From IMG/VR virus record IMGVR_UViG_3300028888_000003: a stretch of 64,000 nt of DNA. One strand, 5' to 3'. The notes beneath the pieces were generated by a model that was not told where the DNA came from, did not search any database, and saw only the letters and a list, made by a program, of their open reading frames with translations. Every line of letters begins with the position of its first letter. Within the stretch, counting starts at the first letter, position 1. Made by a program: the position numbers and the translations under genes. Source of the DNA: a virus (Duplodnaviria; Heunggongvirae; Uroviricota; Caudoviricetes). Shown in pieces: positions 19,758 to 64,000 of this stretch.

Positions 19758-19801
19758 TATAATTCCCCTTTCTTTTATCTCTTTCTTTATCTTACATATA
19801 T

Positions 19802-19830
19802 ATTATATCAAAATTTTCTGAAAAAATCAA
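19802..19830 (-). promoter_or_regulatory. class-B late promoter
   Basis: rc TTGATTTTTTCAGAAAATTTTGATATAATATATATG. Confidence 0.6.
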
Positions 19831-20240
19831 ATTTTATAATACTATGTAATATGGTTTTTCGTACTTCCGCAGATTTCCATACCTTGTCTTTATCGTTTCG
19901 GCATATGCCATACTGCCGCACGCACCACAAACACTTCTGCTCTAAGGCGGTTTTCTCCTGACTACCGCAAACCATCTTAGGGACTTTATTTTACCTTGTC
20001 GCCCTAAGCTTCAAGGGTACCTCGCCGTATGGCTGGCTAATTTGCTGCCTGCTTTTCAGGTGGCTTTTACCATATTAAAAATATAGTTCAGCAGGAGTCT
20101 TACCACCAAGGCTTACAGACTTCCGAGGGTGTAAAACCATAAAGGTTGCCCGAAGGACTAAAACTGACCTCATTCGTTTGAATAAATAAATTTTAGCATT
20201 ACCCATCTCACGCCACGTGGAGGCAACTTACTTGTGAGAC

Positions 20241-21119
20241 TCTAGGTGGAGAGATTTGAACTCCCGACCCTCTGGTCCAGAAAACAATGTTATACTTTAT
20301 CCCATTCTTCATTTGAATATTTTTTTATATCTGATTTTTTTCTTGGTAAACTATAAGCATCACACCATTTACGAATAGCAGCATCACTCACACTATATAA
20401 TTTACCAATTTCTGTAAAAGGCTTTTGTCTAATTAATTCTTTAAGTTGACTTCTTGAAGGTCTATCAGCAACTTTTCTTTGAAATATGTTGTGACAACTT
20501 ACACATCTTGCGCCTTCTTTATAAACCGGAGCACCACAATCAATACATTGATGAGAAGCTAAAGTACCCAATTTCTTAATTTTTATGGGTAGTTGTTCTT
20601 CAAAATCTGACTCTTGGTATTGAGATAAATGTCCTAAAATTTTTTCAACCAAATAATCTTCTGCCATATTTACATTAGGTGGAGTTTTATTTGTTTTAGG
20701 AGTAATTCGTAAACTTTTTGTAGTACTACATTCTTCAACTGGAATTAAATAAACATTATCTTCCCAACAAGTTGCAAAATAATCAATATCATTTGAAGTG
20801 TAATAATGTCGAGTAGTTTTCTGAGTATTTGTTGTAGAACTACAACAAGAAAACGTAATGGAGTTTCTATCATCGGCCCAATGTGACTTTTTACATTGAA
20901 TACGCAAAATTTCTTTACTCGTATCAACTAAAATATCATATTTAGCTTGATTTCCATATGGAACTGAGCATTCAAATCCCATAGTCATAAACTTCATAAT
21001 ACATTGCAGTTCTACAAGATTACCTTGTATCTGAGTTTTTTCCATTTTTCCTCCTCAGAAAAGGAAAAGTATAATTTGCTTTCCAAACCAGATGCTCTAC
21101 CAAACTGAGCCACACCTAG
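20241..21119 (-). tRNA. tRNA-Pro(UGG) interrupted in anticodon loop by ~805-bp intervening sequence (5' exon 21081-21119, 3' exon 20241-20276)
   Basis: exon1 CTAGGTGTGGCTCAGTTTGGTAGAGCATCTGGTTTGGAA + exon2 CCAGAGGGTCGGGAGTTCAAATCTCTCCACCTAGA fold into perfect cloverleaf (C1-G72 acceptor, anticodon TGG). Confidence 0.7.
20290..21045 (-). CDS. endonuclease-like protein (putative homing endonuclease) inside tRNA-Pro intervening sequence
   Basis: 251 aa; PD-(D/E)XK-like YDILVDTSKEILRIQCKK, CxxC...CxxC zinc ribbon, C-terminal HTH-like; RBS GAGGAGGAAAAATG. Confidence 0.55.
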   Translation of the reverse strand: MEKTQIQGNLVELQCIMKFMTMGFECSVPYGNQAKYDILVDTSKEILRIQCKKSHWADDRNSITFSCCSSTTNTQKTTRHYYTSNDIDYFATCWEDNVYLIPVEECSTTKSLRITPKTNKTPPNVNMAEDYLVEKILGHLSQYQESDFEEQLPIKIKKLGTLASHQCIDCGAPVYKEGARCVSCHNIFQRKVADRPSRSQLKELIRQKPFTEIGKLYSVSDAAIRKWCDAYSLPRKKSDIKKYSNEEWDKV

Positions 21120-21169
21120 ATAAATTGCGGCCGGCGATATTGGACTCATCCTCACGCCGTTAAGCCGCT

Positions 21170-22069: not shown

Positions 22070-22554
22070 ATATTTCTGGAGTGCGGTGTTTTCTATGCAA
22101 CCAGATTATTCCGCACCAGTTAGGTGGTTTTTAGGAAATTTTTCCTTGTGACCGCCAAACACAAAGTTTGTTTAGAAGGCAGTTGCATCTTTGTCGCCTC
22201 GAAGCATAGTCGACTATCAGCGCTTCTATACAGATAAGTTTAACTGACATTCTGCTTGGTCAGCACTACCTATAATCGTCATTATTATTAGTGCTCTGTA
22301 TTTTATTTAACGACTTTGACAGTTCCCAGTCGGGTCCCAACATTTATATAGCGTGTAGTTCCGAATACCGCTTTTCTGAGGTTTAACGACCTTTTCAGAT
22401 ATTGGTCGGACTCAGTCATTTATATAGCGCCTACCAACTACGTCAGCGCTGCAAGTTTACTTTGCCTTCTTTTATAGCGTTTGCCACTTATGCCACATAT
22501 CACGACCGCGCCTCGTGCCGATGGTAGTTGAACTTGCAAATCCATGTTAACGCT

Positions 22555-22667: not shown

Positions 22668-22745
22668 TGGTAGGAGTGGTGGGACTTGAACCCACACACC
22701 TGTGAAGATAACGGATTTTCTTACTACTCTATGTTACCATAGCCG
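22668..22745 (-). tRNA. tRNA-like element (3' T-arm/acceptor/CCA recognisable, 5' half unresolved)
   Basis: GTGGGTTCAAGTCCCAC CACTCCT A CCA; no matching 5' acceptor strand found nearby. Confidence 0.3.
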
Positions 22746-23097
22746 CATCTCTGCGTTGTAGTCTGGACTATGTCTTCACCTTGTATTCATACTCTCTACA
22801 CGCACCCTTTGAACCATCAACTTACAGTCGGCTGGTAGGTGTCGCCTCACCTCAACTCCACAAATTTCCTCAAGAGTATAAATATTTAGGTGGGTGGTAT
22901 ATAGTCTCTACACATTTATGAATATTTGGTAAACGCGCCGAGGTACTGCCCCTCTAATTTTGTATTACCTACTTATGTTTCAGAGCATATGTAAAACACT
23001 TTCAGAGACGTAAGTCTTCCATCTATACTGGACGCGCCATATATTCAATTTAGCTCGGCGTTGTCCCCATAAGGATATTCGCCGAATTAGCCACCAT

Positions 23098-23730
23098 TCA
23101 CTCAGCGCTTTCGCTATTCTGAGTGCTCTTTTTTAAATGCATTATATTATATCGTTCAATTAATTCATATGCTCTATCATAATTTTTCCCCGCTGGAGTT
23201 AAATCTAATAGAATTAATGCTTGTCTAATTGACCGACTTTCTTGTAATGCCTGTACAAAATCTTCTTCTGGAACGGTACAATTTTGATTTTTTCTTGCAA
23301 AAGTAGGAGTATATGAATGACAATTAGGACATAACAACTATAAATTAGATAAATCATTATTACTTCTATTACCATCAATATGATGAACTTCTAAATTAAT
23401 AGGTTGTCCCAACCATTCACTTAATCCACAGTGCTCGCATTTTCTACCACGTAAAGCAATTAAAGGTACTGCTGTACTTTTACCATTTTTCTTTTTTGTA
23501 CCATTAGTAAAAGTATCATAATTATAATTTTCTTTATTCCAACCCTATCCTTTAAAATGTGAAGTATCTAAATTTAATTCTTCATACATTTTCTTTAAAG
23601 AAGCCATTGTGCCACCGCCATCAATGGCATATCCCAATTTTCGGGCAACTTCACGATTAGAATAAGAATCTTTTACAATTTCTGATAATTCTTCCCTTGA
23701 AAAATTTCTCCATTTTGCCTTATTACTCAT
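23098..23730 (-). CDS. HNH endonuclease with two in-frame TAG codons (read as sense)
   Basis: one reading frame: ...TSHFKG-TAG-WNKENY...CEHCGL...EVHHIDGNRSNNDLSNL-TAG-LLCPNCHSY...; canonical HNH motif is NLQLLC, implying TAG=Gln. Confidence 0.7.
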
Positions 23731-23940
23731 AATTAAAACCTCCTTTAGTTTCTAATTATAAGTAACTTTATTAGGCATACACTACAAATTTTTAATGCGT
23801 CTGCCAAAGTCCGTTGCGTCTGCCTATTCCGCCACACTCCCATATGTATAAAAGGTTATTACTACTGTCTAACTACTTACAGGATTCCCTATTATCCAAG
23901 CCTTTTATAAAAGTAATTTCTTTTCTCATTTACTATAATA

Positions 23941-28333: not shown

Positions 28334-28897
28334 TCAAAGAAAGGTTTTACATTCTTCTACTTTTACTTTCATATCTTTGATTGCATCGTCAAGCAATACA
28401 GGGGTACAATTATGAGAATCCATACCTACGTGATATATAAAGGGCATTTCATTATAAAAATTGGTCTTTTGATGGGTATGTCCATACAGATTAATCAAAC
28501 AATTATGTAAAGAATTGCTATCAAAATTCGCAGTCATACTGGGATAATGAGAAAGATAAAAATGATATTTTTTATACTTGATAATTGTAGCATAATTTAC
28601 TTCAACTATATTATCAAGGTCTTCAACATACATTTGTTCTCGAGCGGCGCTGTCATGGTTACCAAGAATCACATGAATATAACCATTCAGTCGTGCGATA
28701 CAACTTTTACCATATTCTTTATCTCCAAGGGTTAAATCACCAAGCAGATAAACATCATCATCTTTATCTACAACTGAGTTCCAACGTTCAATTATTGCCT
28801 CATCGTGTTCTTCAATAGAATTAAAACCGCGAGGCTTATACAGAAATTCACGATCATGACCGAAATGTGTGTCGCTCGTTACGAAGATTCTCCCTGC
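28334..28897 (-). CDS. calcineurin-like metallophosphoesterase
   Basis: DTHFGH, GDLTLGD, GNHD motifs; start at MAGRIFV after AAAGGAGTAATAGT. Confidence 0.65.
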   Translation of the reverse strand, partial: AGRIFVTSDTHFGHDREFLYKPRGFNSIEEHDEAIIERWNSVVDKDDDVYLLGDLTLGDKEYGKSCIARLNGYIHVILGNHDSAAREQMYVEDLDNIVEVNYATIIKYKKYHFYLSHYPSMTANFDSNSLHNCLINLYGHTHQKTNFYNEMPFIYHVGMDSHNCTPVLLDDAIKDMKVKVEECKTFL

Positions 28898-28913
28898 CAT
28901 ACTATTACTCCTT

Positions 28914-29200: not shown

Positions 29201-30322
29201 TTATTCCATGAGCTTTAATACTTTGTCTATTGAAATCTTCTTCAAATATTCAAATGCAGTTATTTCCGGATTTTTAAGAGCGGCGAAGCAATAGCCCCGT
29301 GCATCTCCTAACTCTTTCACATATTCTGCGATTGCTTTGCGGTCTTCAAGCTGATATACTCTGATATAATTTTCCATAGCTGCGCGCGCAACTTCAAAGG
29401 CTTGTTCAACGAATTTGAAATCGCGAATGGTTTTCTGAATTTCAGGCATATCACCAAAGAAACCAATCATATCATCTATATACCCGTCAAGAATTGCTTT
29501 TACTACTTTTTTCTGGGTTATTTTATCATTCCCACGAATACGGAATGCTTTAAGATATTCCGCACCTTTAACTTTGATACGATTAAAGTTCTTATCGCAT
29601 ACAACAAATCCTTCATTCAATTTAGAAAGTGAAGCTGCCGCGTCGAGTACGTCGTCGATTGATTTAAATTGATAAGTTCTTGGACGAGGAAAACCAAACT
29701 CTTCATATAACGGATTATAAGCTGTATCCAAATGAAGTTCTTTATCATCGTCTTTACGAACTCCAATCCAATACAAATAAGTTTGTTCATAAGGAACGAC
29801 GAGACGATTGTAAGGAGATACCAATTCAAACATATAGGTATAACCTTCATACATAAATTTAAAAAAGTCATTCATAGCTTTTTTATCTTTAAAACAAGAG
29901 CAAACCAAATCATAGAAGGTCATAGTACCATCATATCCTTCAACTTCTGCTTTTCTTGCATCAATAGTAGAGTTGGTAGATATGTGCCATTCGTCTAAAT
30001 CGTACCAAAATTTTATCAATGAACCGTCTATCTTTTCATAGATAACTGCCGAATCCCAATCTATCTCCGCCGCATTAGCTTCTTGAGCATTAAAAAATTT
30101 ATCGAACGGATGGCATACGCAGATATAACAATCTTTCTCTTTGTCAAATCTAAATATGCAGCCGCGCGCTTCCTGTACAAGGGGGTTCGACATATCAGAA
30201 TTAAGCATATCATACTTTAAGAGAAAGTACGGCTCATCATCTTTAACTATTAAATTGTAAGGTTCTTTGGTAAGAATTTCTCGCCAATCGTTATGTTGAT
30301 TTATAAAGTTTAAGAGTTTCAT
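29201..30322 (-). CDS. ATP-dependent RNA ligase-like nucleotidyltransferase
   Basis: motif I EKIDGSL (KxDG), 373 aa; adjacent phosphoesterase. Confidence 0.55.
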   Translation of the reverse strand: MKLLNFINQHNDWREILTKEPYNLIVKDDEPYFLLKYDMLNSDMSNPLVQEARGCIFRFDKEKDCYICVCHPFDKFFNAQEANAAEIDWDSAVIYEKIDGSLIKFWYDLDEWHISTNSTIDARKAEVEGYDGTMTFYDLVCSCFKDKKAMNDFFKFMYEGYTYMFELVSPYNRLVVPYEQTYLYWIGVRKDDDKELHLDTAYNPLYEEFGFPRPRTYQFKSIDDVLDAAASLSKLNEGFVVCDKNFNRIKVKGAEYLKAFRIRGNDKITQKKVVKAILDGYIDDMIGFFGDMPEIQKTIRDFKFVEQAFEVARAAMENYIRVYQLEDRKAIAEYVKELGDARGYCFAALKNPEITAFEYLKKISIDKVLKLME

Positions 30323-38995: not shown

Positions 38996-39222
38996 TATAT
39001 AGCACCTCCGTTATATTCTGCTGTAACTGTTATGAACGGATAAATCTTAATCGGATAAAACACACCATCTGTTCCGCCTCCAGTTGCCGCAGTACCTGTA
39101 ACAACCGTGCCATCATTCAAATGCCCAACCTTCCCACTCGCAATATCGTTCGCAGAAACCACAGTATCAGTACTCAAATCAATCAAAGTAGCACTATCAA
39201 AAGTAACTTTATTAACCGCCAT
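38995..39222 (-). CDS. fibre-tip module protein A (copy 1); paralog of 44807..45046
   Basis: 75 aa; V.FDS.TLIDL..DTV.S.NDIASGKVGHLNDG.VVTGTA.TGGGTDG. Confidence 0.55.
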   Translation of the reverse strand: MAVNKVTFDSATLIDLSTDTVVSANDIASGKVGHLNDGTVVTGTAATGGGTDGVFYPIKIYPFITVTAEYNGGAI

Positions 39223-39244
39223 TTCCCGGTACCTCCGCTACTAA

Positions 39245-41026
39245 TACGTTATAGGTTGTGGTTACACCACTGTCGGTTATTACGAGGGGTTTTAGTACGA
39301 CATTATATTCAACGCCGTTAATTGTTGCCTTTCCTTTTGATTCTTTCGTGGTATCAGGCATACTTACGATTTCTTCTATTGCGAAGCATTGGCGACTATT
39401 TAAATTTATACATCTCGCTTTAACAAGAGCACCTTTAGGAATTGTTTGTGCTAATGGATTGTATAACCAACCAGTACCATTTATACCATTCTATTCAAAT
39501 ACTACAATTGAGTTATTTGTTCTGTCAAAAGTTGTAATACCGTTATCTGTAGATATATCAACATTTTTACTCGATCCTAATTCAGCAGGAGTATAAAACT
39601 ATACATAGTGATAATTATATTGTAAATCATTAACCTAAGAACTATCTATAATATTGTTGCTATTAAGGTCATATACATAGACAGTTTCATTATTATAGGT
39701 AGTTGTATTTACAAAACTTAGCTGAATAGGATGGTCTTTATAATAATCTACTAAGTGTCCAATATTAGTATGATTATAGCTATATGCTATCGGAGTTCTA
39801 TTCTGGAGAATTACATACTCATTATTTCCAATAGAATAGTCGTAGTCAAAAATCCTATAAATGGCATTGTTATCTGGATAGCTAAATGTTGATGTTGCTG
39901 CGCCAGTGTGGTTAATTAATACTACTCTATTTTTAATAGGAACACAAACATTTCCATTAGGTTTATTGGTCCGTTCATAGGACCAGCTATCTTTCCAACC
40001 AGAACTCGTATTTGTTAATTCAAAACTTGGCTTCCAACTATTTAAATATCTAGAACCATTTGGAGTTAACTCTATAACGATATCATTGTCATCGTATTCT
40101 GGTGCGTCAATATCATCATAATCATTTACCTTTTCCCAACAGAAATCTTCTTCTCTAATTAGTTGGACTGTTATATAGCGTTTAGTAGAATTTAATCGAT
40201 CTGTTACTGTAAAAGGTTCTGATAACACTTTAAAATAATATGTATTACCTGATTCTAAATAATTGTAAGTAGCCACACTAAAGGCAGACTCTTCAATAGT
40301 ATTATACATTCTTTTTGATAAATTTTTAATAAAATCTATTCCCAAATGCTGGCTATTCAATTCTTCTTCAGTAAATTGAGTTAAAAGACAAGTTGTAGTA
40401 GTACCATTCACTTTACAGTCTATTGTAGGACTATAGCTAAGATGAATATTATCAAGAATAGATATTACGCCATCTTCATGACAAGATATATAATCCATAC
40501 GTTTATTGGTTCCATTGCCAATGGGAATGGTAATATATTTATTTACTAAAGCAGATCCAGTATAACTACTAATATAAGAATTTGCAATTAATCCAACAGT
40601 ATTGGCTAAAGTTTGTAAACTACGACCAGTTTTTAGGCTATCGTTATATTTATATAATGTACCTTTCCCTAAATAGTTTTGCTTAAAATATAAATCACCA
40701 TCTTTAGGAACTTCGCGAATAAATTCACTATCCGAAAATACTCTTGGTGTATATTTAGCTTCTGCTTTGAGTGCTAAATTTTTATCAATTTCTGCTTTAT
40801 TTTGTAATAATTCTACTTTTTTACTTAATTCTAATCTTTTATAATTTTCATCTGTTGATAAAGAAATAGCAGAAATTTGAAAAGCACTATCTAATCTATG
40901 TATCTGACATGAAGTATCAATTGGTAAATTAATACAAATATGAACAGAAAAAGTTGTTTCAGTAGATAAATCAATTTCAGCAACGAATGATTCTTCAACG
41001 TTTTCATCATTATAATTTATACTCAT
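39245..41026 (-). CDS. large structural protein; TAG at 39635 read through (3' end approximate)
   Basis: 463-aa ORF-track piece 39635-41026 ends in TAG and the frame continues. Confidence 0.4.
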
Positions 41027-41039
41027 TCTGTGCCTTATA

Positions 41040-41737
41040 AGCCCTATAGTCTAGTTTTCTTTTTTGAGACTGCGGTATGCATTAAAAGATTCAAAATTCT
41101 TATCTATATGATATGAAATCAATTTTTGTGAAAACCAATCAGTTATCTCTTCAAAAGAAGGTATAAAAACAGCGCGATCAATTTCTTCAGTAATAATTTC
41201 ATTGCTCTCAATCGTCTAAACTAATATAGTTTTATTTTCAAGAGTGCTAAAATATGAGCTGGTCCAATTACTAATAGTCTAATCTAATTCGCCATTTTTA
41301 TAACCAGTAGAAGCAAAACCGTGTCCATTCATAGTAAATTCAAGCTAATCCAATGAAAGTAAAGTAATGCTATTTTTATTATCTACTATCATAAAATGAG
41401 TATCTTGTCCGTTAAAATCTGCTGTTAAACAAGTACCTAAAGGTAATAATTTTAAATAAACGCCGTCTGAAGAATAGGGTGAATCATTATGAGAATTAAC
41501 GACTGCTAATTTTACAGAAGAATCAATCGTAGGGTTTTTATACGTATTGTAAAAATCAATTTCATTTGGTACATCATTAATTGTAATTTTTGTATTGAGT
41601 ACGTTACGTATAGTATTTAATTTGCTATTTACAGATGAAGATAACTGCTCCATCTTATTGTCGCTTTCTGTTTTTGTATATATATTTCTTTTTAATGCAT
41701 CTATAATCGTTTTAAAATTATCTTTTAAGGTTGCCAT
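41040..41737 (-). CDS. hypothetical structural protein (TAG at 41345 read through; end approximate)
   Basis: ORF-track 41345-41737 ends in TAG. Confidence 0.35.
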
Positions 41738-45184: not shown

Positions 45185-45628
45185 TCATTCAAAAAAGTAG
45201 ATTTCATCCCAGCCTTCTTCTTCAGTCGGCTCGCAAAAATTCTTAAACATGCGTTCAAGCACGTCTTCTGGAACTACTCTTTCTCTATTCTGATTTCTCT
45301 TCTTAGCCTCTTCTAACGGAGTTTTTAAAACCAAAGCTATTTTAAATCCACGATTAAACGGTTCAATAAATCTCAACAAATTAATACGATTTTTTCTTGA
45401 AATATTAGTTGCATCAAATATTACATTTCTATGATAATACAAAGCGTCCTTAATTCTATCATAAGCAACTTCAAATACTTCTTTATTCTTAACCTGTATT
45501 GTCTCATCTCCAAATAATTCTTTCCGTATCTCGTCAGTAGAAACAATTACAGCATTATATCTTTTAGCATACTCTTTAGCAAGAACTGACTTGCCGGATC
45601 CGGGTATACCAACCATACAAATAAACAA
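45185..45628 (-). CDS. P-loop kinase (polynucleotide-kinase-like)
   Basis: Walker A GIPGSGKS, 147 aa. Confidence 0.55.
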   Translation of the reverse strand: MFICMVGIPGSGKSVLAKEYAKRYNAVIVSTDEIRKELFGDETIQVKNKEVFEVAYDRIKDALYYHRNVIFDATNISRKNRINLLRFIEPFNRGFKIALVLKTPLEEAKKRNQNRERVVPEDVLERMFKNFCEPTEEEGWDEIYFFE

Positions 45629-49110: not shown

Positions 49111-49139
49111 ATTATACCAAAAATTTTGAAAAAAGTCAA
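49111..49139 (-). promoter_or_regulatory. class-B late promoter (TTGACT -35)
   Basis: rc TTGACTTTTTTCAAAATTTTTGGTATAATTATTATAG. Confidence 0.55.
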
Positions 49140-49858
49140 ATTCTAACTATTCCATCAATGCTAAGCGAAGTAATTTTTTTACCACCAGTTTCAATTTCGC
49201 AAGATTTATGAACGTGTCCACAAAACCACTCTTTAAAAGTAGCAATTTCTAAAATCTCATCTAATCTTTTCTCGCTATCTGCATAAATTGGATTGGGGTA
49301 GAGATTAGATTTTGCAATAAAGGTTGCGGGCGGGCAGTGAGTTAATATATAATCAACTTTGAAGTCGCGCACCTCTAAGTTTTTCTTTGCATTTTCAATT
49401 TCAGCATCACTTATAGTCTCTTCAGCCCACCAAATTGCCTCGCCATAATCTGCTTCATACTGCATACGCCATTCTTTATCGTGAGAATCAGCGCCACCAA
49501 TACAAAGAAAAGATTTTTCTTCTAACTGAACAATCTCGCCAGGCTGGATAACATAGATGCAGTCGCGCAGCTTCCACGTTTTAAAATCCCAGTCATTGCA
49601 AGTCTCAAGGTGATAATAACGCGGCCAGCAGTCATGATTACCAAGTATTGTAAAAAGGACTTTATCATTCTGTTTTAAAACCTCGTTTATATAATCAAGA
49701 GTACTTTCTTCAAATTTATCAGTTTTATTAGAAAACCATAAACCAAAATCTCCCAACTGAATACAGTATTTCTCTTGACTAAATTTAAAGAAATCAGATG
49801 GGTGCGCCCAATTTAATATCATATCAGTCTCAGCATGGATATCCGATAAAATCAGCAT
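49136..49858 (-). CDS. calcineurin-like metallophosphoesterase (second copy, distinct)
   Basis: LILSDIHAE, GDFG, GNHD motifs. Confidence 0.6.
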   Translation of the reverse strand: MLILSDIHAETDMILNWAHPSDFFKFSQEKYCIQLGDFGLWFSNKTDKFEESTLDYINEVLKQNDKVLFTILGNHDCWPRYYHLETCNDWDFKTWKLRDCIYVIQPGEIVQLEEKSFLCIGGADSHDKEWRMQYEADYGEAIWWAEETISDAEIENAKKNLEVRDFKVDYILTHCPPATFIAKSNLYPNPIYADSEKRLDEILEIATFKEWFCGHVHKSCEIETGGKKITSLSIDGIVRI

Positions 49859-53769: not shown

Positions 53770-55077
53770 TTGTAATACCCATTCATATGTGAGTGTTTTG
53801 TATGTATCGCCAGATACCGTTCCTACTAAAGCATATGTGCCATTAGTAGTCTTAGGAAGTTCAGGTACTAACATGTATCTAGGCCCTATGTTCCATATAC
53901 AATAGTTCTCATCTTCTGGGAAAGCAAAAGTCATTTCATCAACTGTGTCTTCCTTAAATATTTTGCATACTAAAATTATTGAAGTTTTATTTTGTTCTGT
54001 ATGATATTGTACAGTCGTAACATTTAATACCGCTAAGCCTTCTGTGTTTGAAGGTAAATCAATCTCTTCGTTTTGTCCCCATACAACGCGCAGAGCCTAG
54101 CCTTTAGCTAATGCTGCTTCAATGCTTGCATATGTTGCAGTTGAAGGACAGCGCGCCTCGCCATCAACCACTTCTCCCGCTGTAGTCAATACTTGTACTA
54201 CATATGGAGGAACTTCAAGCGAACTTTCGATAGAATTTATTTTTCTAATTAATCTATCAGGTAAGCAATTGTATTCTATTTTTTTCGTAACTGCAGCATA
54301 GAATGGTATTGTAAAGTATCCTTGATTTTCATCTAAAATCAAGAAATACATACCCCTATCAAGCTCTAATGATACGGAATCAGCTTCTGTTGATTGCTCG
54401 CCAGATTTTCCACCCGAGGCGCCGGGGAACAAATCAACAAAAGGAAGAAATGTCCCCGCAGCAGTTATATAAAAAGCGTTAATATTAAATGCTAACTCTG
54501 GACTACCATAAGACTAAAAATAACCTTCACCATTATTGTCAGCCACACTATTGTCTAAGTCTAGTGCAACTAGAGCAGATTTTTGTAGGGTTTGAGAAAG
54601 ACCAGCTAATATTTCTGTACCATCAGAACCAGGTATATAGTCTTCAATAAAGGCAGTTGCTATTTCAAGTAAGTTACCTTTATAATCAAAATATGCTGGC
54701 GGCTCGCCTTCTTCATTATTATTATCAGAAGCCGCGAAACATTTTACTTCGGCTAGATCTTGCACAAACTCTAAAGTGCCATTAACATCGGTAGTACTGA
54801 CATTATTGCTGGCTTTATATAGCATGAATCTGCAATGTTTTGAGTCTTCGTTATTTTCTAAAATATCATTATAAATTAAAGTAGGATGTTGCGGATGATA
54901 TTGATCTGTAAAAGCCTTTGTTAAGCTAACTTTTGATTGAATATTAAGTACGGTTTTTCTTGATAATTTTTCAGCCCATTCTCTACTTATTAAGCTATCT
55001 TCAGGAAAATCTCCAAATCTCTTATCAAAGATTGTTAATTCTGTACCATCAATTGCATATAAATTAGAAATTATCAT
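53770..55077 (-). CDS. tail/baseplate-associated protein (~435 aa; TAGs at 54514 and 54097 read through; 3' end approximate)
   Basis: ORF-track pieces 54514-55077 and 54097-54432 share a frame across TAG codons. Confidence 0.45.
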
Positions 55078-58000
55078 TAATTACCGCCTCCTTGAGAATT
55101 TATAAAAGCAACATTACCTACATTACCTTTTATCCAATTATATTCTGGTGCGCCATTTGTTACGGTTAATTGTAAGATATATGAACCATCTGTAGTCGGC
55201 GGATCGGGAATTGGAACTGAGGACAACTTTGTTCCACCAGTAGAGTTTGCCTCACAACCTACGTATACATCTCCCATAAAGTATGCGTTACCATTATAAT
55301 CAAGTGAATAAGCGTTTGAACGCTTGTTGTTTGCAAAACCATTACCTACCACAACTAAAGAAGAATTGGCAGCATTATAGAAACGAAAGTAAACCGAATT
55401 CCATCCGTCTACCGGTTCTTCTGGTAGATTAATAAAAGTTAACTCCTTTGTGGTATCATTATACAGACTTCTTGAAGAAATTATTGTATCATTGCCATTA
55501 ACTGGATGAAATACAATTTCTCCTGTCCATAATTCTTCTCTATGCGCATCATCATCAAAGAAGTTTGATAAATCATAAGTATTGGTAGAGGAATCAAAAT
55601 TTGAAAGAACTTTTGTAATATAAGGGTTGGTATCATCATATAATCCAGTTTTGATAGTGTTATATTGTCCGGCAGCATGCTGAATACTATTTGCTATTGT
55701 ACCACGACCTTCCGCATGTGAATATTTTCCACTTGCTGCGGTTTCCAAACCTTCTGCATGAGAATATGCCCCTTGCGCATTTGTGCGGGCTCCCTCTGCA
55801 TGGGAAAAATCTCCATATGCATAAGTTGTACTACCTTCCGCATGACCATTTTCTCCGTCAGCATGAGTAAAAGCACCTTCTACATGAGAATAATTGCCAT
55901 TAGCATAAGTCTGAGAACCTTCTGCATGAGAACTTTCTCCATTGGCCTCAGTAAAGTAGCCTTCTGCATGAGAATAGCTACCATATGCTTGAGTATTGCC
56001 GCCTTCTGCATGAGAACATTCCCCTTCTGTCTAAGTCCATCCGCCTTCAGAATGCGAATAATAACCATTTGCTATTGTTCCATTGCCTTCAGCATGAGAA
56101 ATATGACCATTAGCTTCAGTCCGCGCTCCTTCTGCATGAGAAGCATTACCTTGCGCTGTAGTGCTACCGCCTTCTGCATGAGATTCTGGCCCGATAGCAT
56201 AACTACTACCACCTTCTGCATGGGAATAATCTCCAATTGCCATTGTATTATTTCCTTCAGCATGGGCGCCCCTTATTGGATCCGCAGATTCAATATATGG
56301 ACGTCCTTGAATAGCACCACCAGTATATCTATAAAAACCAGAAGGATATTCATGGTTATTATCATATTCATCAATCCAACTATTTTCAACATAATATAAT
56401 TGACCTACTTCAGCTTCATCTGCATCCAAGTTCATTAAATCTTCATATGACGATATAATTTCATAGTCTTCGCCAAGTTTATTATTACATCCTTCAATAG
56501 ATGAATATTCAACAAAACTAGTTATAGTATTGGATTCGCCAAAAACGGCACAATTCTTTCCATCATTTACATTATTGGCTCCAACAACAATTGAACCACT
56601 ACCAGTTGGATTAACCTTGTCCATTTTATTATTTAAATTAGCAATTGTAGCATAGGTATTACTAACTAATGTCTTATAAGCATTTAAAGTATCAGTAGAT
56701 TCTGTTTTATAGGAATTTAATTCATCTAATGCAGTATTAATATTTGCCCATTGGTCTTCATTAAATACTGTAGTTGAACCCATGTCGTCTCCAATATTTT
56801 CAACAAAATTCCAAGTAAAATTATTATTACCATCTGAACTATATACATATTTTTTTAATATAGGTTTGGTATTATTATTCCAAGGATCAATAATAAAAGC
56901 ATAATCATTTACTTGAATATTATTAGTTGGCAATAAATTAGACAATTCATATTGCAATCTATAAATAACACCTTCAGAATAACCTTCTGTCAAAGTCTAT
57001 TCCTTAATAGGATTAAATGATATATCTTCAATTATATCTTCATTAAGAGCTTCTTCTACCTCTTCTGAAGTTAAATATATTTGTTCCCATGCATTATCTT
57101 GTACCTTAAAATAGTAAGGATAATCATCTATTTTTGTTGTAAAAGTACCTATATAACGATCATGGCCAAAAGCATTGCCACTTACATCAAGCGCGCCATC
57201 AATATAATCTTTTACGCCATTTGGCATACCAGCACCGATTAATAAGCCAGTTGCATTTATATTACCAGTAACATTTAGATTGCCGGTTATTGTTTCGGGA
57301 TTTGTCTATGAAAGTTTTGTATTATCTGCGGCAATTCGCGCAGCAATTTCATCATCTAAATCTGAAGCTAAATCGGTTACTGAAGCTTTAGTAGCCAATT
57401 CATTTGAATTAGAATAAACCTTGCCTGAGAAATAAGCATCACCAGTAAAATTTAATGTGCCACTTCCTTCAGGATTTGTTTTATTCATTTTTAAATCTAA
57501 GTCATCATTTAAAGCACTAGTTGCAGTTTCTAAAGCAATAATTCGATCAACTTCTGCCTAAATATATTTAGGATTTAACTATTCTACTTTTTCTTCACCA
57601 AACATGGGCCAAAGAATTACCAATGATTGATTAGATGTAAATGTCCCAGATTGCTCTGCTCTACTATCATAAATACTGTATACGCCCTTTTCAAGTGTAA
57701 TTGTTTTTTCTTTAATAGTAACAGTTGCAGGTTCTGTGCTATCAATTACTACAAATTCAACATAAGTATTATTATCTATACCATATGTATATATAGAACC
57801 GACATTATTATTTAAGAGATCTGTCTGTAATAGAGAAGCAGTCTCATTCTCAAATAATGAACTAAAAGAGCCTTGTTCTCCACCATTGATGCTTTCTTTA
57901 TGAATGGTTAAATTATTATAAATATCCTCATCAAATTCATTCTAATTCTAAGGATCTCGCGCAATATCTGATAATTTATATAATTTATAATAGCTATCAT

Positions 58001-58262
58001 CTAAATCAATTAACTTTGGCTCGTACTCATTTGTACCTTTAAAATTGCCTTCCCATAAAGGATGCACTAATTCAAAACGATTTGTAGTATAATGAGTACG
58101 ATTTTTAATATAATCAATCAAATTGCTATTATTTTGAAACCAATCTTTTTCGGTATATCCAGCCAAAGATTCTGGATCAACACTCGCGCGCAGATCATAG
58201 CGTTTATTTGCAGTATTTTTAACTCGTTTAATATAACCAACGCTTTCTATTAGATCGCTCAT
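55077..58262 (-). CDS. tail fibre protein with ~15 YadA/Hep_Hag-like SHAEG repeats (~1060 aa, at least 6 in-frame TAGs)
   Basis: RBS AAAAAGGAGG before ATG 58262; pieces 57948-58262, 57306-57488, 56997-57227, 56031-56993, 55077-55748 all in one frame; repeat phase preserved across TAG (..SEGGWT-TAG-TEGECSHAEGG..). Confidence 0.6.
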
Positions 58263-58289
58263 ACTCTAACCTCCTTTTTGATTATTTTC

Positions 58290-58330
58290 CAATTATAAGT
58301 AGAAATCCCAACTTAGTATCTCTACTAAGT
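58290..58330 (-). terminator. intrinsic terminator
   Basis: TCCCAACTTAGTAGAGATACTAAGTTGGGATTTCTACTT. Confidence 0.55.
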
Positions 58331-58342
58331 TGGGAATACTAT

Positions 58343-61300
58343 TATTTTAATGTAAATTGCACTTTAAAGTAAACTGAAATACATTCGTCTAATATGTCGG
58401 TTCCTCTTACATAGAAATCGTTGTAATTGTTACCCCATTTTGGTCCGCCTCCATTTTCACTAGTTGCTATACCACTATTATTTGGACCTGTTGCATGCTA
58501 TGTATCTGAACAGAATTTAGAATCTAAAATTTTAAATGATGCAAGTAATCCATTATATTGTAAATCACTTGAGTTTTTTGATTTGAGATGATACTATATT
58601 CTATTATCATTCCAAGCATAATGACTATTTTTATACATATTAAAATAACAATAACCTATGTATACATCTTTATCTTTATTAGCAACTATATAAGTTTTTA
58701 TAGTATCATGTCTATCTCCATTATTATTACCATTTTTCCGAGTCCCTGTTTCAAATTCTAATGGATATATTACAGTAGCTTTATTATTAACATAATCTTC
58801 TGAAGCATAATTATAACTATTTAAGTCATTATTTGTTACATAATTACTATGAGTATGCTCTTTTAATGCAAGTTCACCAGAACCACTAGTAGGTAACCAA
58901 AATACTGCATTAGCACCACTTTTAAGCTAAGATACATTATTACTAGTACTATCAGATTTAATCTTAATACCATTTGAATTTGTAAAAGTTTTACATCCAG
59001 AAATTGTCTAATCAATTTTTGTTAGGTATTCGGTATAGGTCTTTGATTTATTATCAGTATCATTAGGATCAATATAAGTATTCCAATTTTTAAGAATTTG
59101 ATTTTTCAATGTGGTAATATCAGACTATAATGCTAATGTATGTGTTCCATTCTACTTTATTGGAAACTAAAAGAAAGCATAACAACCTTCTTGAGCTTTT
59201 AAATATGAAGCTTTCCTATCAGTTGATATAAATTCAATACCTTTTGCATGTGAAAAAGATTTTAAACCCGTAATTTCTTGATCGGTATCTGTAGTAACAT
59301 AATTCTTTGGTATCATTTTTGTTATGTATTCAGTATAAGTTTTTGGTTTATCATCAGTACCATCAGGATCAATATAAGTATTCCAATTTTTAAGAATTGA
59401 TGATTTTAAATTTGTGTTTAAATTTGTAATGTCAGATTGTAATGCTAATACATTATTTATACCGCCAACCTCGGGGAAAAGAAATACAGCATTAGTGTTT
59501 GCTTGAGGTCTTAAATAGGAAACCAAAGTAGAATTTTGTGGCATAAATTGAATACCATCGGGGTGTCTAAAACATTTTTTACCAGTAATTGCTTGATAAG
59601 TTTCTTCACCATTCTCTTTATAAGTTTTTCCTGTAGTAACATAATTAGTTGATAAAGACATGAGACTGGCTATATCTGACTTCTTTATTCCGCTACGCTT
59701 TATAGAATTATCTTTATATATAGCTAAATACTCTGTATTATCATTAGTGCCTTGTTCTATATTCGCTTGTAAGTAATGACTACACTATGCAAATGCATAA
59801 GTGTTTGGATTACTTCCTGTTTGTTCTATATAGATAGGATAAAATTCAGTACCTACAGCTTGAGTAAACCGTATGCATTTATCTAATTTTTCACGAATAT
59901 CTCGATCTGCCCTATCTCTTACTGTCTCTTCATCACTAATTCTCTTCTCAATAGTATGCATCCAATATTTAGAAATACCACTATTAATTGTATCCCACTG
60001 CGCTTGAGTAAAGCTACTATTATTTAACTAATATTCAAAGCGCCAAGTCTCTTCAATTACTTCTTCAGTAGTTGGATGAGTGATTTGTACGAATTTATAA
60101 CGATGACATATAATTTTCTTTCTTTCTTCATCAGTAGTCTTTGCGTTCGTATCGGGCCTTATATTATTATCTTCAAAATCATAAATATCAGAGAACAATA
60201 CATAGTCAAGTTCAGTATCCGGTTCCCAAATTTGCACATAGCAATAGTCATTTTTATCTGGAACCGCGCTGACTTCTACGTATTCCCAAGGCGAACCTTC
60301 TGCGGCAATATTTTGAATCCATTGATAATATTTATCTTCATCGTTATTTTTTACATGGTAAATTCTATTTTCAGAAGCGGCAATTAATTCGGGAATTGGT
60401 AATTTAGTCCAGTCTGCTATATCTACCACATCATTATCAAGAGGATTATTTGAACCTTCTTCTCGTGCTGGCCAGTGATCGTTAACCCAATCATATTGAT
60501 AATATTTGTCATCATCTATAGTATGATAACAACGATTTTTATTGGTGGTCTTTGGTAAACCATTATATGAACCAGCAGTAACAGTGTTACTATCAGCATA
60601 TTTAAGCACATGAGTATTTAACCATGTGGACATTTGATCCCAATCGTTTGGATTAATTTCTTGACCGCCATTATCTTCAAAAGTATACCACACATAAATA
60701 GTATCATTTTCTTGTATACCTTTTTCTTCTATAATAGTCTCATTAATAGGAATGTTTTCGCTATATGTTACTTTATATATTTTTTTAACATCTTGATCCA
60801 AATAATATAACGGAAAACTTTCAGTTGTATTTGGATCGGTTAAATCTACTTCCTCTAATTCTAATTCAGGATCTGTTTTCGCGACATTAACTGTCTTTGG
60901 ATTATAATCTTCAGGAGTAACTACACCACGATAAGTCGCTGTAGCAGTAGCAATTGAAGAATTTACGAAAAATTTATCAGCAAATTCATTCGGAACTACT
61001 TCATTATTAATTACAGCTGAAGTATATAAATTTTCAGGTATGCGCTCATTATGAATTTCACCATGAACATATAAACCATTAAAGGTAGAAAGAGAGCCAT
61101 TCCAGTTACCCCAGAATGTACCGCCTGTTCTGTTTACGTCATTTCCTTGGCTTCCAATAGTAAGAGTATCGCCAAATAATGATTCTCCTTTAACTGCAAG
61201 ACTAATATTGTCAGTTGGCCAAGTCATACCTAAATTTGCAGTTGGTTGACCATCACGCTCAATTGTAACTTTTTCTCTAAACCTTGAATGTTTAAGTACG

Positions 61301-64000
61301 TCAAGTGCGGGATTTGCATCACTATGATCGTCAACTGAATCACCAATTGTTACACGATCACTTAAATCAGAAGTACCGTCAATTTCTAAGTGACCGGCCG
61401 CATATGTATCGCCGTCTTCGGTTATTGCAAAGAGATTTCCCTTTGAGTAGTTTTTACCATCTTCCCTTGTTCCATCTCTATTTGCTTTAATACTGCCACT
61501 ACCAATACCAATATTTTTATTTCTTGTAGCGCTTAACTAACTATCACCATCACCAATTGCAAATATAATTGGTTTATCCTCTTCTTTTATTTCTGTATCT
61601 CCACCGTAATATTTATCAACAGTATGAGTAGTTTTTGCAAGTACACCTTCTAAATGCTAGTATCTTCTGTTGGCAATATTACCTGCACCTTCTACATGCA
61701 CACTTTCTACGCTTGAGTTTGCTGTCTAAGCAACAATATTATTTTTGCCCTCGACATGAGAGAAATTAGCGTCTTCTTTAATTGTATTTTCTGAACCTTC
61801 TGCGTGAGCAGCAGTGGTAGAACTTCCTTCAATTTTATTTAACTCGCCTTCAGCATGATTATAATGTCCAGCTACCGTCTAAGCATAGCCTTCTGCATGT
61901 GAAGCTATACCGCTTACTTCAGATGGTTTTCCGCCAACTTCGCCAAAAAAGTCATTTTCACCATCAAAATATTCAACAAGTTCGGAATAATCACCAAGAC
62001 CTTCAATATGTGATAAAAGACCAGTAGAAGTAACTTTTGTACCAAGTCCTTCTGCGTGGGAGTTAAGAGCGGCCGCAGTAGTGGATTCGCCTTTGGCGTT
62101 AGCATTATTGCCAGAAGCAGTCGTGTTTTTTCCTTCTGCATGGGCATTTGTTCCTTCAGCAATAGTAGATTCGCCTTCTGCATGAGAATTTGTACCAGAA
62201 GCTGTCGTATCTTTACCTTCTGCATGAGCATTTGTTCCACCAGTATATGTTGTTACTCCGCCTGAAGTAGTAATTATTCCTGTTTTTGTGCCGTTACCTT
62301 CAGTATGAGAAGAAGCACCTATTGCGATACTATTTGTACCTTCTGCATGAGCGGCTTGTTTTCTAGCTGTAGTTCCATGACCTTCTGCATGGGAACCTTT
62401 TCCTAAAGCAGTGGTGCTCTAACCTTCTGCATGCGCAGAAGCACCAGAAGCCTCATTATGAGCATCAATAACATTATTACTAGCGTTGAGATCACAGCCA
62501 CCTTCTGCATGGGAAGCCTGACCAGAAGCTACATTTTTATAACCCTCTACATGTGAAATATAACCAGAAGCAATCGCTTGTCTACCTTCTGCATGTGCAT
62601 AGAAATTATTAGCTTCAGTATAATAGCCTTCTGCATGAGAGCTAGTTCCTAGTGCTATAGTTCCTTCGCCTTCTGTATGCGACTAGTTACCTTTTGCTTT
62701 AGTTGAACTACCAGTCGCAACAGCGTTATTACCAGTAGCTTCTACATCAGTACCAACTTCAAGAGAATGTCTACCAATTGTATCATCATCTTGAATACCA
62801 TTTGCGCGAGTACCAACTGTGAGTGAACCATAATCTTGTTTTGAATTATAAATTTCTTCATTATTGTCATTGTATCTATCTGTAATTGGCCTAAATTTAA
62901 CACCATCCCAATAGAAATATGTTCCACCATCATATTCCCCATTTGCTTTAGCAGGATTAGGATCTACAAGTCTATACAAATCAGTAGAAGGCGTATAACT
63001 TTTATCCTCACCAAGCTAATAAACCTTGCCTGTTTTAGGAATTACTCTTATATTCTCTCTATAAGTACAGCTCGACTATCCCGTTGTAATTTGTAAACCA
63101 GATATAAATTGAATATTCCCGTCTGGATTTGCCCTAGCCCTACAATTGGTATATTCACCTTCAAAGGTCTATAGTGTTTCTTCTCCATGTCTATAGTATA
63201 CATCTTGTTCGTTTATATTTCGGTAGATATCTCCAATCTAAAGTTTGTCATTAATTTTAATTTGTTTAAATTTATTATCTTCATAATAAAACTCGGTATA
63301 GTTTGAAGTAATATCATCAGGATCTGTATAAATCCTATATTTCCATCCTTTTATACCTTCAAGCTCTTTATCAGCTTCATAATATAAATGTCCATACCAT
63401 TTATCAACAATTGGTTCTATTCTATTATCAGCTTTCATACAAAAATGACGATACTAAGAATCATTAGAGGCCGGAGTATTATCATTACAGAACCAACAAT
63501 CTTTTAATATTTGAGAATCATCAATTGTAGTAAAATTAGTGAGATTGTCATTTTCATCTCTTTCTGTGCTAGAAGCATTAACTCTATAAATTTGATCATC
63601 GACTTTAAAGAATTTATTTGCTATTTCTTCATCTTGCACATAAGTATGACCTTGTATTTTCGCGCCGTCATGATGTATAGAAAGTGCAAAACCGTGGGTT
63701 TGATGAGTAAGGTTACTACTAAGAGCAGGATCAAAATAATTCTTGTTATCTATAACAGTCTTTTTGATCTCTCTATCGGTGTAGTCTCCAACACCATCTT
63801 CAATAATCATACCTCTATCAGCATTAACTGTAGTATGAGATACAATTTCTTTATACGCTTCAATTGTACCAAAACCAGTACCATAATAAGGATGATCAGG
63901 ATCTTCGGTTTCATCCCAGTCTTCACCGTTATATCTATCTTCACCACGATTAATATAAACTTTAGGATACTATCCGTGATTTGGAATTAAATGGCCGAAA
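58343..64000 (-). CDS. giant tail fibre/adhesin-like protein with Hep_Hag-like repeats (>1880 aa, many in-frame TAGs; 5' end beyond window)
   Basis: 63456/63240/62685/61227/60030/59169 codon positions all congruent mod 3; 59661-60030 checked codon by codon: only TAG interruptions, no TAA/TGA; EATGNNAVATGSSTKAKGN and SHAEG repeats. Confidence 0.5.

Follow-up and report, generated by a model that had tools for sequence, protein, structure and literature searches.

We analyzed a 64,000-nucleotide stretch of viral DNA (Caudoviricetes; IMG/VR record IMGVR_UViG_3300028888_000003), referred to below as the window. A minus-strand array of tRNA genes in the window, for Met, Glu, Phe, Asn, Gly, Trp, Gln and Pro, terminates in a tRNA-Pro(UGG) gene that is interrupted in its anticodon loop by an insert carrying an open reading frame (ORF). 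The exons were delimited by reading the sequence, by intron-allowing ARAGORN and by junction comparisons, and the parts lie as follows.

21083..21119 (-): 5' exon of tRNA-Pro(UGG), nucleotides 1-36
20278..21082 (-): intervening sequence of 805 nt, AAAGCAAAUU...CAUUGUUUUCUG, consisting of 37 nt, the ORF and 12 nt
20290..21045 (-): ORF for a predicted homing endonuclease of 251 aa (Pfam, sequence match to 2OST, fold match of an AlphaFold model)
20241..20277 (-): 3' exon, comprising G37, A38, the 3' strand of the anticodon stem, the variable loop, the T arm, the 3' strand of the acceptor and A73

On the minus strand, the 5' exon reads CTAGGTG TG GCTC AGTTTGGTA GAGC A TCTGG TTTGG; it is 37 nt long owing to an extra D-loop base and is closed by the anticodon U34 G35 G36 at 21085-21083. 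After the 805 nt, the 3' exon continues as GA CCAGA GGGTC GGGAG TTCAAAT CTCTC CACCTAG A, without an encoded CCA. The canonical reading of the split gene is a tRNA-Pro(UGG) with C1-G72 and A73. An earlier reading of the sequence alone (the original prediction) had described two tRNA halves flanking the insert, with this acceptor pair, GG in the D loop and a TTCAAAT T loop, and all of these are present. Plain ARAGORN run on the window missed the gene; with introns allowed, it reported a split tRNA at 20240-21120, its own parse being a Ser(gga) that demands a non-standard cloverleaf. When the two exons were joined in silico, plain ARAGORN called Pro(UGG). The split tRNA-Pro(UGG) is real and exceeds what chance would give: the joined exons are called in this way, and eight more diverged tRNA-Pro genes show an equivalent interruption. 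The region gave no blastn match to GenBank phages.

The insertion point lies between nucleotides 36 and 37 (G36|G37). G occupies position 37 in all 120 uninterrupted tRNA-Pro(UGG) genes of IMG/VR that share the anticodon stem, with A, T or G at position 38. In the interrupted relatives, the base directly before the stem varies among A, G and T, and the preceding 12 bases are constant. The tRNA-Pro gene of locus L149 has a T after G36, which is impossible as position 37, and an alignment of Enterococcus phage EFP01 with the insert-free EFDG1 leaves 36|37 as the single possible insertion point. Because these lines agree, we placed the break after G36, which gives a mature loop of UUUGGGA. The original prediction had broken the gene after 37/38 and read the loop as TTTGGAA; a tRNA-Trp relative joined by that rule would carry U at 37, and this relative too supports the corrected loop. 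The two A's at 21082-21081, taken there as loop positions 37-38, belong to the insert, and G37 and A38 are 20277-20276. The 3' half as then drawn (20241-20276) is 36 nt long, not 35, and the non-coding flanks, put at about 27 and 14 nt, measure 37 nt upstream of the ATG and 12 nt downstream of the stop codon, or 49 nt in total. The spliced junction predicted from the exons and specific to the window is GGTAGAGCATCTGGTTTGGGACCAGAGGGTCGGGAGTTCAAATC, and the inferred sequence of the insert-free anticodon arm is TCTGGTTTGGGACCAGA.

Recurrence in other tRNA genes and mobility

At E<=1e-5 the endonuclease had 119 homologs, of which roughly 80 were full-length. The genomic context of 13 homologs, together with that of one short PF11645 ORF in locus L013, was examined. 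An insert at 36|37 was found in nine diverged tRNA-Pro(UGG) genes (the window, L006, L007, L011, L019, L021, L026, L149 and L150), in a tRNA-Trp(CCA) (L023), in a long-arm tRNA-Ser(UGA) (L013), in a tRNA-Gln(UUG) with U1-A72 and G73 (L147), and in tRNA-Asn(GUU) from the cultured phage EFP01 (KY549443). When nucleotide 36 was joined to the last two bases before the stem, plain ARAGORN called the expected anticodon in 13 of 13 cases, with loops of the UUUGGGA type and CUCCAAA, CUUGAAA, CUUUGAC and CUGUUAA; the junction predicted for the tRNA-Asn of EFP01, whose precursor is 536 nt long, is ...GACTGGCTGTT|AACCAGTTC... The nine joined tRNA-Pro sequences share one cloverleaf, with compensatory changes in 18 of its 23 pairs. 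The endonucleases of the interrupted tRNAs have diverged to 35-50% identity, and the exons are nonetheless intact.

Identities of inserts and exons were discordant. The window and L006 share inserts that are 89.6% identical and exons that are 71.6% identical, and in L149 and L150 the exons are 83.8% identical and the inserts 52%, indicating that the element moves. Among 31 Schiekvirus-related records, the insert occurs only in the two of EFP01; the remaining 29 Enterococcus phage records have an annotated, uninterrupted tRNA-Asn with flanks that are about 97% identical. By these comparisons the element is mobile, with insert-free alleles seen at least for the Asn lineage. A homolog in Pectobacterium phage My1 is free-standing between tRNA-Gly and tRNA-Ile; the ORF of the window, lying inside a tRNA anticodon loop, is not between genes as a free-standing homing endonuclease would be.

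The endonuclease

In the 251-aa protein, residues 3-132 matched PF11645 (PDDEXK_5; E 1.1e-25, 90.6 bits against a cut-off of 26.1 in Pfam), and the protein matched the sequence of the I-Ssp6803I crystal structure, 2OST, at E 2.4e-8. An AlphaFold model had a mean predicted local distance difference test (pLDDT) score of 85.5, and the structure-based search that the original prediction had suggested returned the four chains of 2OST as its top four fold matches (best E 4.8e-10, template modelling (TM) score 0.77), followed by SPARDA nucleases and archaeal Holliday-junction resolvases; the first 50 matches included no tRNA-splicing endonuclease (EndA). Across 36 homologs, E12, D37, Q50 and K52 are invariant and the four cysteines of a zinc ribbon (C167/C170/C181/C184) nearly so, and a helical DNA-binding module lies downstream of the ribbon at the C-terminus. 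By sequence and predicted fold, the ORF belongs to the I-Ssp6803I homing-endonuclease family, with its predicted catalytic residues kept. The original prediction is thus borne out for the PD-(D/E)XK-like core and its resemblance to I-Ssp6803I, the CxxC-x11-CxxC zinc ribbon, the length of 251 aa and the GAGGAGG ribosome-binding site, and its C-terminal helix-turn-helix corresponds to a DNA-binding module that is common to HNH and GIY-YIG endonucleases.

Such a modular build is typical for phage homing endonucleases. The zinc ribbon with the helical module is also fused to HNH and to GIY-YIG nucleases, the latter in proteins P0110-P0119, and it occurs alone in a 96-aa ORF just upstream of a tRNA-Gln (L001 2992-3282). 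This distribution indicates domain shuffling among endonucleases that target tRNA arrays.

A stalk that continues the anticodon stem

Both ends of the insert pair with each other and with the anticodon loop, forming a two-part stalk. The proximal part was derived from a pair table, covariation and predicted folds, and the distal part from predicted folds.

21076..21087 (-): proximal stalk, 5' strand, formed by loop nucleotides 32-36 and insert positions +1 to +7, with the 5' junction (21083/21082) inside it
20276..20287 (-): proximal stalk, 3' strand, formed by the last 10 nt of the insert (UUGUUUUCUG) with G37 and A38, with the 3' junction (20278/20277) inside it
21061..21074 (-): predicted distal helix, 5' strand (UUAUACUUUUCCUU), in the 5' untranslated region (UTR)
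20290..20303 (-): predicted distal helix, 3' strand (GGGAUAAAGUAUAA), in the last codons and stop codon of the ORF

In every lineage the stalk prolongs the anticodon stem in register: counting from the stem, nucleotides 33, 34, 35 and 36 face positions -2, -3, -4 and -5, and insert positions +1 to +7 face -6 to -12. In a fixed-register alignment of 12 lineages, the 11 pairs from 33:-2 to +7:-12 were 93.9% paired, with changes on both sides in 8 of the 11, compared with 36-52% when the partner was moved by 1-3 columns and with 0 of 500 shuffles reaching the observed values; the structure was derived from the same sequences as those tested, which makes these controls somewhat flattering. The three bases of the insert that face the anticodon change with the kind of tRNA: CUG faces UGG (at 20280-20278 in the window), UGA faces CCA, UCA faces UGA, CAA faces UUG and AGC faces GUU. 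Pair +1:-6 occurs as A-U, U-A, G-C or C-G, and pair +5:-10 as C-G, A-U, U-G or G-C. G-U pairs are numerous, with three in succession in tRNA-Pro, suggesting a constraint on RNA rather than a DNA palindrome. Taken together, the covariation points to a stalk that is evidently under selection.

Minimum free energy and centroid folds of the 879-nt precursor predicted intact acceptor, D and T arms together with 17 continuous anticodon-arm pairs (z = -5.0), and mini-constructs of six and then of all 13 lineages were predicted to fold alike. The distal helix, 6-14 bp long, pairs the 5' UTR with the last codons and stop codon and differs in sequence from lineage to lineage, with equivalents in L007, L011, L026, L149, L023 and EFP01; a small internal loop, with A opposite CA in most tRNA-Pro and in tRNA-Trp, separates it from the proximal part. 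Its 5' strand has an alternative pairing, of UUUUCC with GGAAAA at the region of the ribosome-binding site (21068-21063 with 21051-21046). The precursor is thus predicted to consist of a normal tRNA body and a stalk of about 25-30 bp with the ORF in its distal loop. The two junctions fall within one unbroken helix, at a distance of 3 bp and placed symmetrically around pair 35:-4.

Candidate RNA-processing functions in the window

The following features may bear on the processing of the interrupted tRNA.

20184..20240 (-): candidate hepatitis delta virus (HDV)-like ribozyme of the theta type (Rfam RF02682, 31.3 bits with a gathering score of 44, E 0.001)
28334..28900 (-): metallophosphoesterase adjoining the ligase (PF12850/PF00149)
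29201..30322 (-): T4 Rnl1-type RNA ligase (PF09511, E 1.1e-19)
45185..45616 (-): AAA_33 P-loop kinase (PF13671, E 1.5e-24)
49136..49858 (-): second metallophosphoesterase (Pfam scan)

The first base of the HDV-like candidate directly follows A73, and a covarying counterpart of its P1 helix lies downstream of the tRNA-Pro in L007; such a ribozyme would cut out the 3' end of the tRNA. Theta ribozymes have been found downstream of phage tRNAs, and the genomes that host them are enriched in genes for RNA ligase and CCA-adding enzyme (PMC10879173). The ligase of the window, homologous to the T4-like rnlA of 835 phage records, is a candidate exon-joining enzyme, and the adjoining metallophosphoesterase is a candidate for healing RNA ends. 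The AAA_33 protein, a member of the family containing polynucleotide kinases, is a candidate for healing 5' ends; for all three, we infer the tie to the insert. In T4, an anticodon-loop break made by PrrC is healed by Pnkp and sealed by Rnl1. The window shares with that system a ligase of the Rnl1 family, a P-loop kinase and a phosphoesterase, but what T4 repairs is damage that the host inflicts at a single site, and no 805-nt insert is removed.

How the interrupted tRNA might be matured

Bacterial tRNA introns surveyed so far are self-splicing, almost all of them group I and a few group II (PMC13011429). No Rfam family matched the insert at E<=10 when 2.9 kb and then, with laxer filters, 1 kb were scanned, and on this basis group I, group II and small ribozymes in it were rejected; the identical scan recovered the group I core of the neighbouring tRNA-Leu(UAA) at E 1e-8. 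The covariance-model search for introns of group I or group II that had been suggested at the outset therefore came back empty, in line with the early remark that no group I core fits outside the ORF, where there are 49 nt. A canonical group I intron with an endonuclease gene, as in the cyanobacterial tRNA-fMet, now appears very improbable, although much in the comparison is shared. Some group I introns in tRNA genes do hold a PF11645 endonuclease, namely those of Synechocystis tRNA-fMet and of tRNA-Arg(UCU) in Bacteroidota and Campylobacterota (PMC13011429), and the endonuclease family, the anticodon-loop target, the mobility and the existence of insert-free alleles are common to both; the tRNA-Pro insert even ends in G. 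The analogy drawn in the original prediction thus holds for the protein family and fails for the ribozyme and for the site, which is 36/37 here and 33/34 in the tRNA-fMet intron (PMC13011429). Group I introns in bacterial tRNAs measure 184-894 nt, with a 5' exon that always ends in U and an intron that always ends in G (PMC13011429), whereas non-coding sequence amounts to 49 nt in the insert of the window and to 26-49 nt in 12 relatives, well below that minimum of 184 nt. The 5' exon ends in G in Pro, A in Trp, A in Ser, G in Gln and U in Asn, and the last base of the insert is G, A, A, A and C, respectively, so that neither is conserved and the terminal G is not kept outside Pro. Furthermore, the 5' exon has the insert's 3' end as its pairing partner and not a guide near the insert's 5' end, and the phage protein has a zinc ribbon and helix-turn-helix tail in addition.

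A self-splicing or self-cleaving RNA hidden in the coding sequence, either a very degenerate core resembling that of group I or two small ribozymes combined with RtcB ligation, is also unlikely. Some divergent tRNA introns are known to escape the group I model of Rfam (PMC13011429), this group of phages uses small ribozymes, as the HDV-like element directly after the tRNA suggests, and enzymes encoded in the window would be able to heal cyclic-phosphate and 5'-hydroxyl ends. Yet the 1-kb scan with relaxed filters brought up no family at E<=10 either, and because the short relatives have inserts of only 464-483 nt with ORFs of 141-145 aa, a hidden ribozyme would be confined to the coding region of the nuclease domain. 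That region is 35-40% identical between lineages, and its synonymous conservation is not raised: identical codons at identical residues remain flat at 0.5-0.75 along the ORF alignment. Neither junction has a conserved base. A bulge-helix-bulge intron of the archaeal and eukaryal kind, cut by an EndA-like enzyme, is as improbable as a canonical group I intron. Archaeal introns of this kind can carry homing endonuclease genes, and they share with the phage insert the absence of a ribozyme, junctions in a helix formed with the insert ends, pairing of the anticodon with the insert and a preserved tRNA body; protein-dependent splicing, in archaea by EndA cutting and RtcB joining, would be a further common trait if the phage insert is spliced. 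The two 3-nt bulges 4 bp apart are nevertheless absent in every register tried: the junction registers 36/37, 37/38 and 38/39 were checked by hand and none pairs in this way, and the stalk is continuous in all 13 lineages, with junctions 3 bp apart. The site is 36/37 rather than 37/38, the endonuclease is of another family, and C1-G72 with A73 and the Shine-Dalgarno site indicate a bacterial host. No EndA domain was found in the scanned ORFs or among the fold matches of the insert's ORF. On sequence grounds, canonical group I and bulge-helix-bulge introns both appear effectively excluded.

We tentatively favor a mobile, ribozyme-free intron at 36|37 whose stalk is processed by proteins. Protein splicing is favored because the pairing reaches the anticodon stem and tracks each anticodon, because the exons are intact, and because joining enzymes are encoded in the window. 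The non-group-I inserts seen in other tRNAs of this phage group, described below, also speak for this reading. In this scheme, the endonuclease would cut insert-free tRNA genes of co-infecting phages at the palindromic DNA of the anticodon arm, and the insert would spread by homing after the cut. In the precursor RNA, the anticodon stem would run in register into the stalk, a structure-specific endonuclease would cut the two strands 3 bp apart, after nucleotide 36 and before nucleotide 37, and an RNA ligase would then close the 7-nt anticodon loop. Here that ligase may be the phage's own T4 Rnl1-type enzyme, and the ends could be healed, where necessary, by the kinase and phosphoesterase; phages without such a ligase would require a host ligase such as RtcB. 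The HDV-like ribozyme would trim the 3' end of the tRNA. In an improbable variant of this scheme, the insert's own PD-(D/E)XK enzyme would do double duty, cutting both the homing DNA and the RNA stalk at its two junctions, the staggered cut about pair 35:-4 being of the kind made by a dimeric nuclease. Metal-dependent nucleases of this fold usually leave 5'-phosphate and 3'-hydroxyl ends, and with such ends an Rnl1-type ligase could join the exons.

Several observations weigh against a protein-spliced intron. We know of no endonuclease with the required cutting pattern. A 7-nt loop cut from a continuous helix needs an odd 3' overhang of 1 or 3 nt; RNase III leaves 2-nt overhangs, which would give loops of 6 or 8 nt, and it was rejected as the sole nuclease. 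None of 29 window ORFs compared with Pfam encodes an EndA-type enzyme, the window covering 64 kb of a genome that measures at least 139 kb. The whole genome of EFP01 has phosphoesterases but no homolog of the window's ligase, and a phage ligase is therefore no general requirement. The kinase and phosphoesterase have an ordinary alternative task, either mending tRNAs broken by anticodon nucleases or taking off the cyclic phosphate that the HDV-like element would leave, and the stalk could instead serve the release of the endonuclease mRNA. At L148 (1201-1930), a 226-aa homolog lies beside only a T arm, the 3' strand of an acceptor and CCA, and no 5' tRNA half was found upstream. The locus has the appearance of a host tRNA that has decayed or been rearranged, suggesting that host tRNAs can decay. 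Finally, the comparison with intron-less tRNA-Pro alleles proposed in the original prediction found none for the window's gene: its exact 5' half gave 0 further matches of this kind in IMG/VR, and Joint Genome Institute (JGI) metagenomes gave 0 matches as well. The L011-type tRNA-Pro likewise had 0 insert-free matches, a generic search for the anticodon-arm pattern returned only ordinary tRNA-Pro genes, and among contigs sharing the downstream gene one begins within the T loop and is hence uninformative.

Much of this would be expected if the insert is an unspliced selfish element in a dispensable tRNA gene, kept by homing, which is the main alternative and a distinctly possible one. The tRNA would then be lost and the host would supply tRNA-Pro, with the stalk acting, for example, as an RNase III site that frees or regulates the endonuclease mRNA, much as stalks free rRNAs. 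A stalk of about 25-30 bp falls in the size range of RNase III substrates, the insert is sporadic (EFP01 alone among 31 related phage records), the ligase is missing from EFP01, a decayed host tRNA is seen at L148, free-standing endonuclease genes of the GIY-YIG, HNH and PF11645 types abound in these tRNA arrays, so that selfish spread is common there, and no splicing enzyme was found. A known parallel, the intervening sequences and processing stalks of bacterial 23S rRNA that are cut by RNase III, shares the long double-stranded stalk and the lack of a ribozyme, but its ends are never rejoined and rRNA tolerates fragmentation, whereas a tRNA cut in the anticodon loop does not; the 2-nt stagger of RNase III is also unsuited to a 7-nt loop. 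For mRNA release the distal helix alone would suffice, but the pairing reaches the anticodon stem and tracks each anticodon. Intact exons with compensatory changes in nine tRNA-Pro lineages, along with those in Trp, Ser, Gln and Asn, also argue against a lost tRNA, as do the HDV-like candidate retained exactly at the tRNA 3' end and the case of L018, which has two tRNA-Pro(UGG) genes, both interrupted. The original prediction had named an overlapping ribozyme, protein-assisted splicing and an inactivated tRNA as options; the first has become unlikely, and the evidence leaves the other two standing.

Other routes were considered and rejected. RNase P with RNase Z was dismissed: the 7-bp helix +1..+7:-6..-12 resembles an acceptor stem yet continues below the cut, it is without a T-arm-like hairpin, and an RNase Z cut would fall 2 nt off the junction. 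Excision at the DNA level via cohesive ends would have to join 3-nt ends, TGG and CTG, that are incompatible, and the G-U pairs point to RNA. An RNA stalk that mimics the full DNA homing site is contradicted by the match of the left half only, the distal half agreeing at 3 of 8 positions.

Protein-dependent tRNA splicing is regarded as an archaeal and eukaryotic trait. The literature searched contained no account of bacterial or phage tRNA inserts that carry an endonuclease gene and lack a ribozyme, and the insert appears to be an endonuclease-bearing tRNA intervening sequence of a kind undescribed for bacteria or their viruses. If spliced, it would represent a new class of bacterial intron and a cut-and-join mode of tRNA splicing in bacteria or phages, would be a natural substrate for phage Rnl1-type ligases and possibly for bacterial RtcB, and would open a way to approach the tRNA introns of recoded gut phages that still lack an explanation. 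The double-duty variant, if true, would make it a self-contained, ribozyme-free mobile intron of the bacterial world, analogous to archaeal introns and built from different parts. If not spliced, it would clearly exemplify an endonuclease gene that persists although it destroys the tRNA gene in which it sits. The cultured phage EFP01 and its insert-free relatives provide a testable system for either outcome. Since standard tRNA finders miss such genes, phage tRNA repertoires are under-counted.

Other interrupted tRNA genes

The tRNA-Leu(UAA) gene of the window (22668-23841, minus strand), 1.6 kb from tRNA-Pro, is split after U34 by 1087 nt and was not reported by the default tRNA scan. Its insert contains a group I core (RF00028 at 22741-23145, model positions 1-253, 41 bits, E 1e-8) and an HNH endonuclease ORF (23098-23778). 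In L019, a tRNA-Phe(GAA) at 595-1442, directly upstream of the interrupted tRNA-Pro, is split by 772 nt, and the 3' end of this insert resembles that of the window's group I intron (…GGCTATGGCGACATAGAGTAGTAC).

Short ORF-less inserts were also seen in anticodon loops. An amber-suppressor tRNA(CUA) in L151 (99-232) carries a 62-nt insert at 34|35, the first 7 nt of which pair with the last 8; the uninterrupted gene in its sister L150 (195-269) is otherwise identical save for one D-loop base. Inserts of 48-85 nt occur in tRNA-Arg(UCG), tRNA-Pro(UGG), tRNA-Leu(UAA), tRNA-Thr(UGU) and tRNA-Met genes (L021 3371-3493, L022 3455-3577, L018 3742-3902, L007 464-622, L012 5471-5605 and L149 125-248). 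In the Arg insert, two helices are supported by compensatory changes; the Leu insert amounts to an entire nested tRNA with a terminal CCA, and several inserts end in ...ACCA before the 3' exon. The tRNAs of Lak megaphages have been reported to contain 'enigmatic introns', one of which resembles a nested tRNA (PMC6784885), and the short inserts resemble these. The 805-nt insert has in common with the Lak-type introns that it is a non-group-I insert in an anticodon loop of TAG-recoded gut phages (PMC6784885). The latter differ in being 48-85 nt long and without an ORF or an in-register stalk, in occupying other loop positions such as 34/35 and in being partly nested-tRNA-like.

Recoding and other elements near the tRNA arrays

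In much of the window, the phage reads TAG as sense: ORFs of 1885, 1071 and 841 codons (58342-63999, 55077-58292 and 39212-41737, minus strand) exist only with read-through. No tRNA with a CUA anticodon was found within the window. Endonuclease ORFs in L021, L026, L023 and L013 contain 1-4 in-frame TAG codons each and are truncated by gene callers (for example, to 162 aa in P0085); these ORFs are fully translatable only under phage recoding of TAG.

The spacer after tRNA-Gln (21121-21169, minus strand; GCGGCTTAACGGCGTGAGGATGAGTCCAATATCGCCGGCCGC) strongly resembles the one that follows the tRNA-Pro of L006. It could represent a further small processing element and had no match in Rfam. Two ORF-less stretches of about 430 and 480 nt in or beside the tRNA array (19758-20183 and 22071-22554, minus strand) are relatively G+C-rich and hairpin-prone and matched no Rfam family. 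ROOL RNA was absent from the window at the gathering score and lies by interrupted-tRNA arrays elsewhere (RF03087, 265-310 bits): L021 762-1337, L007 3498-4091 and L152 2412-2998, the last from EFP01. An RNaseH-like PF04308 protein of 167-170 aa is encoded downstream of the interrupted tRNA-Pro in L019 (2379-2891) and L149 (2487-2990); it was rejected as a factor, the window having no homolog. The two copies are 58% identical on otherwise unrelated contigs.

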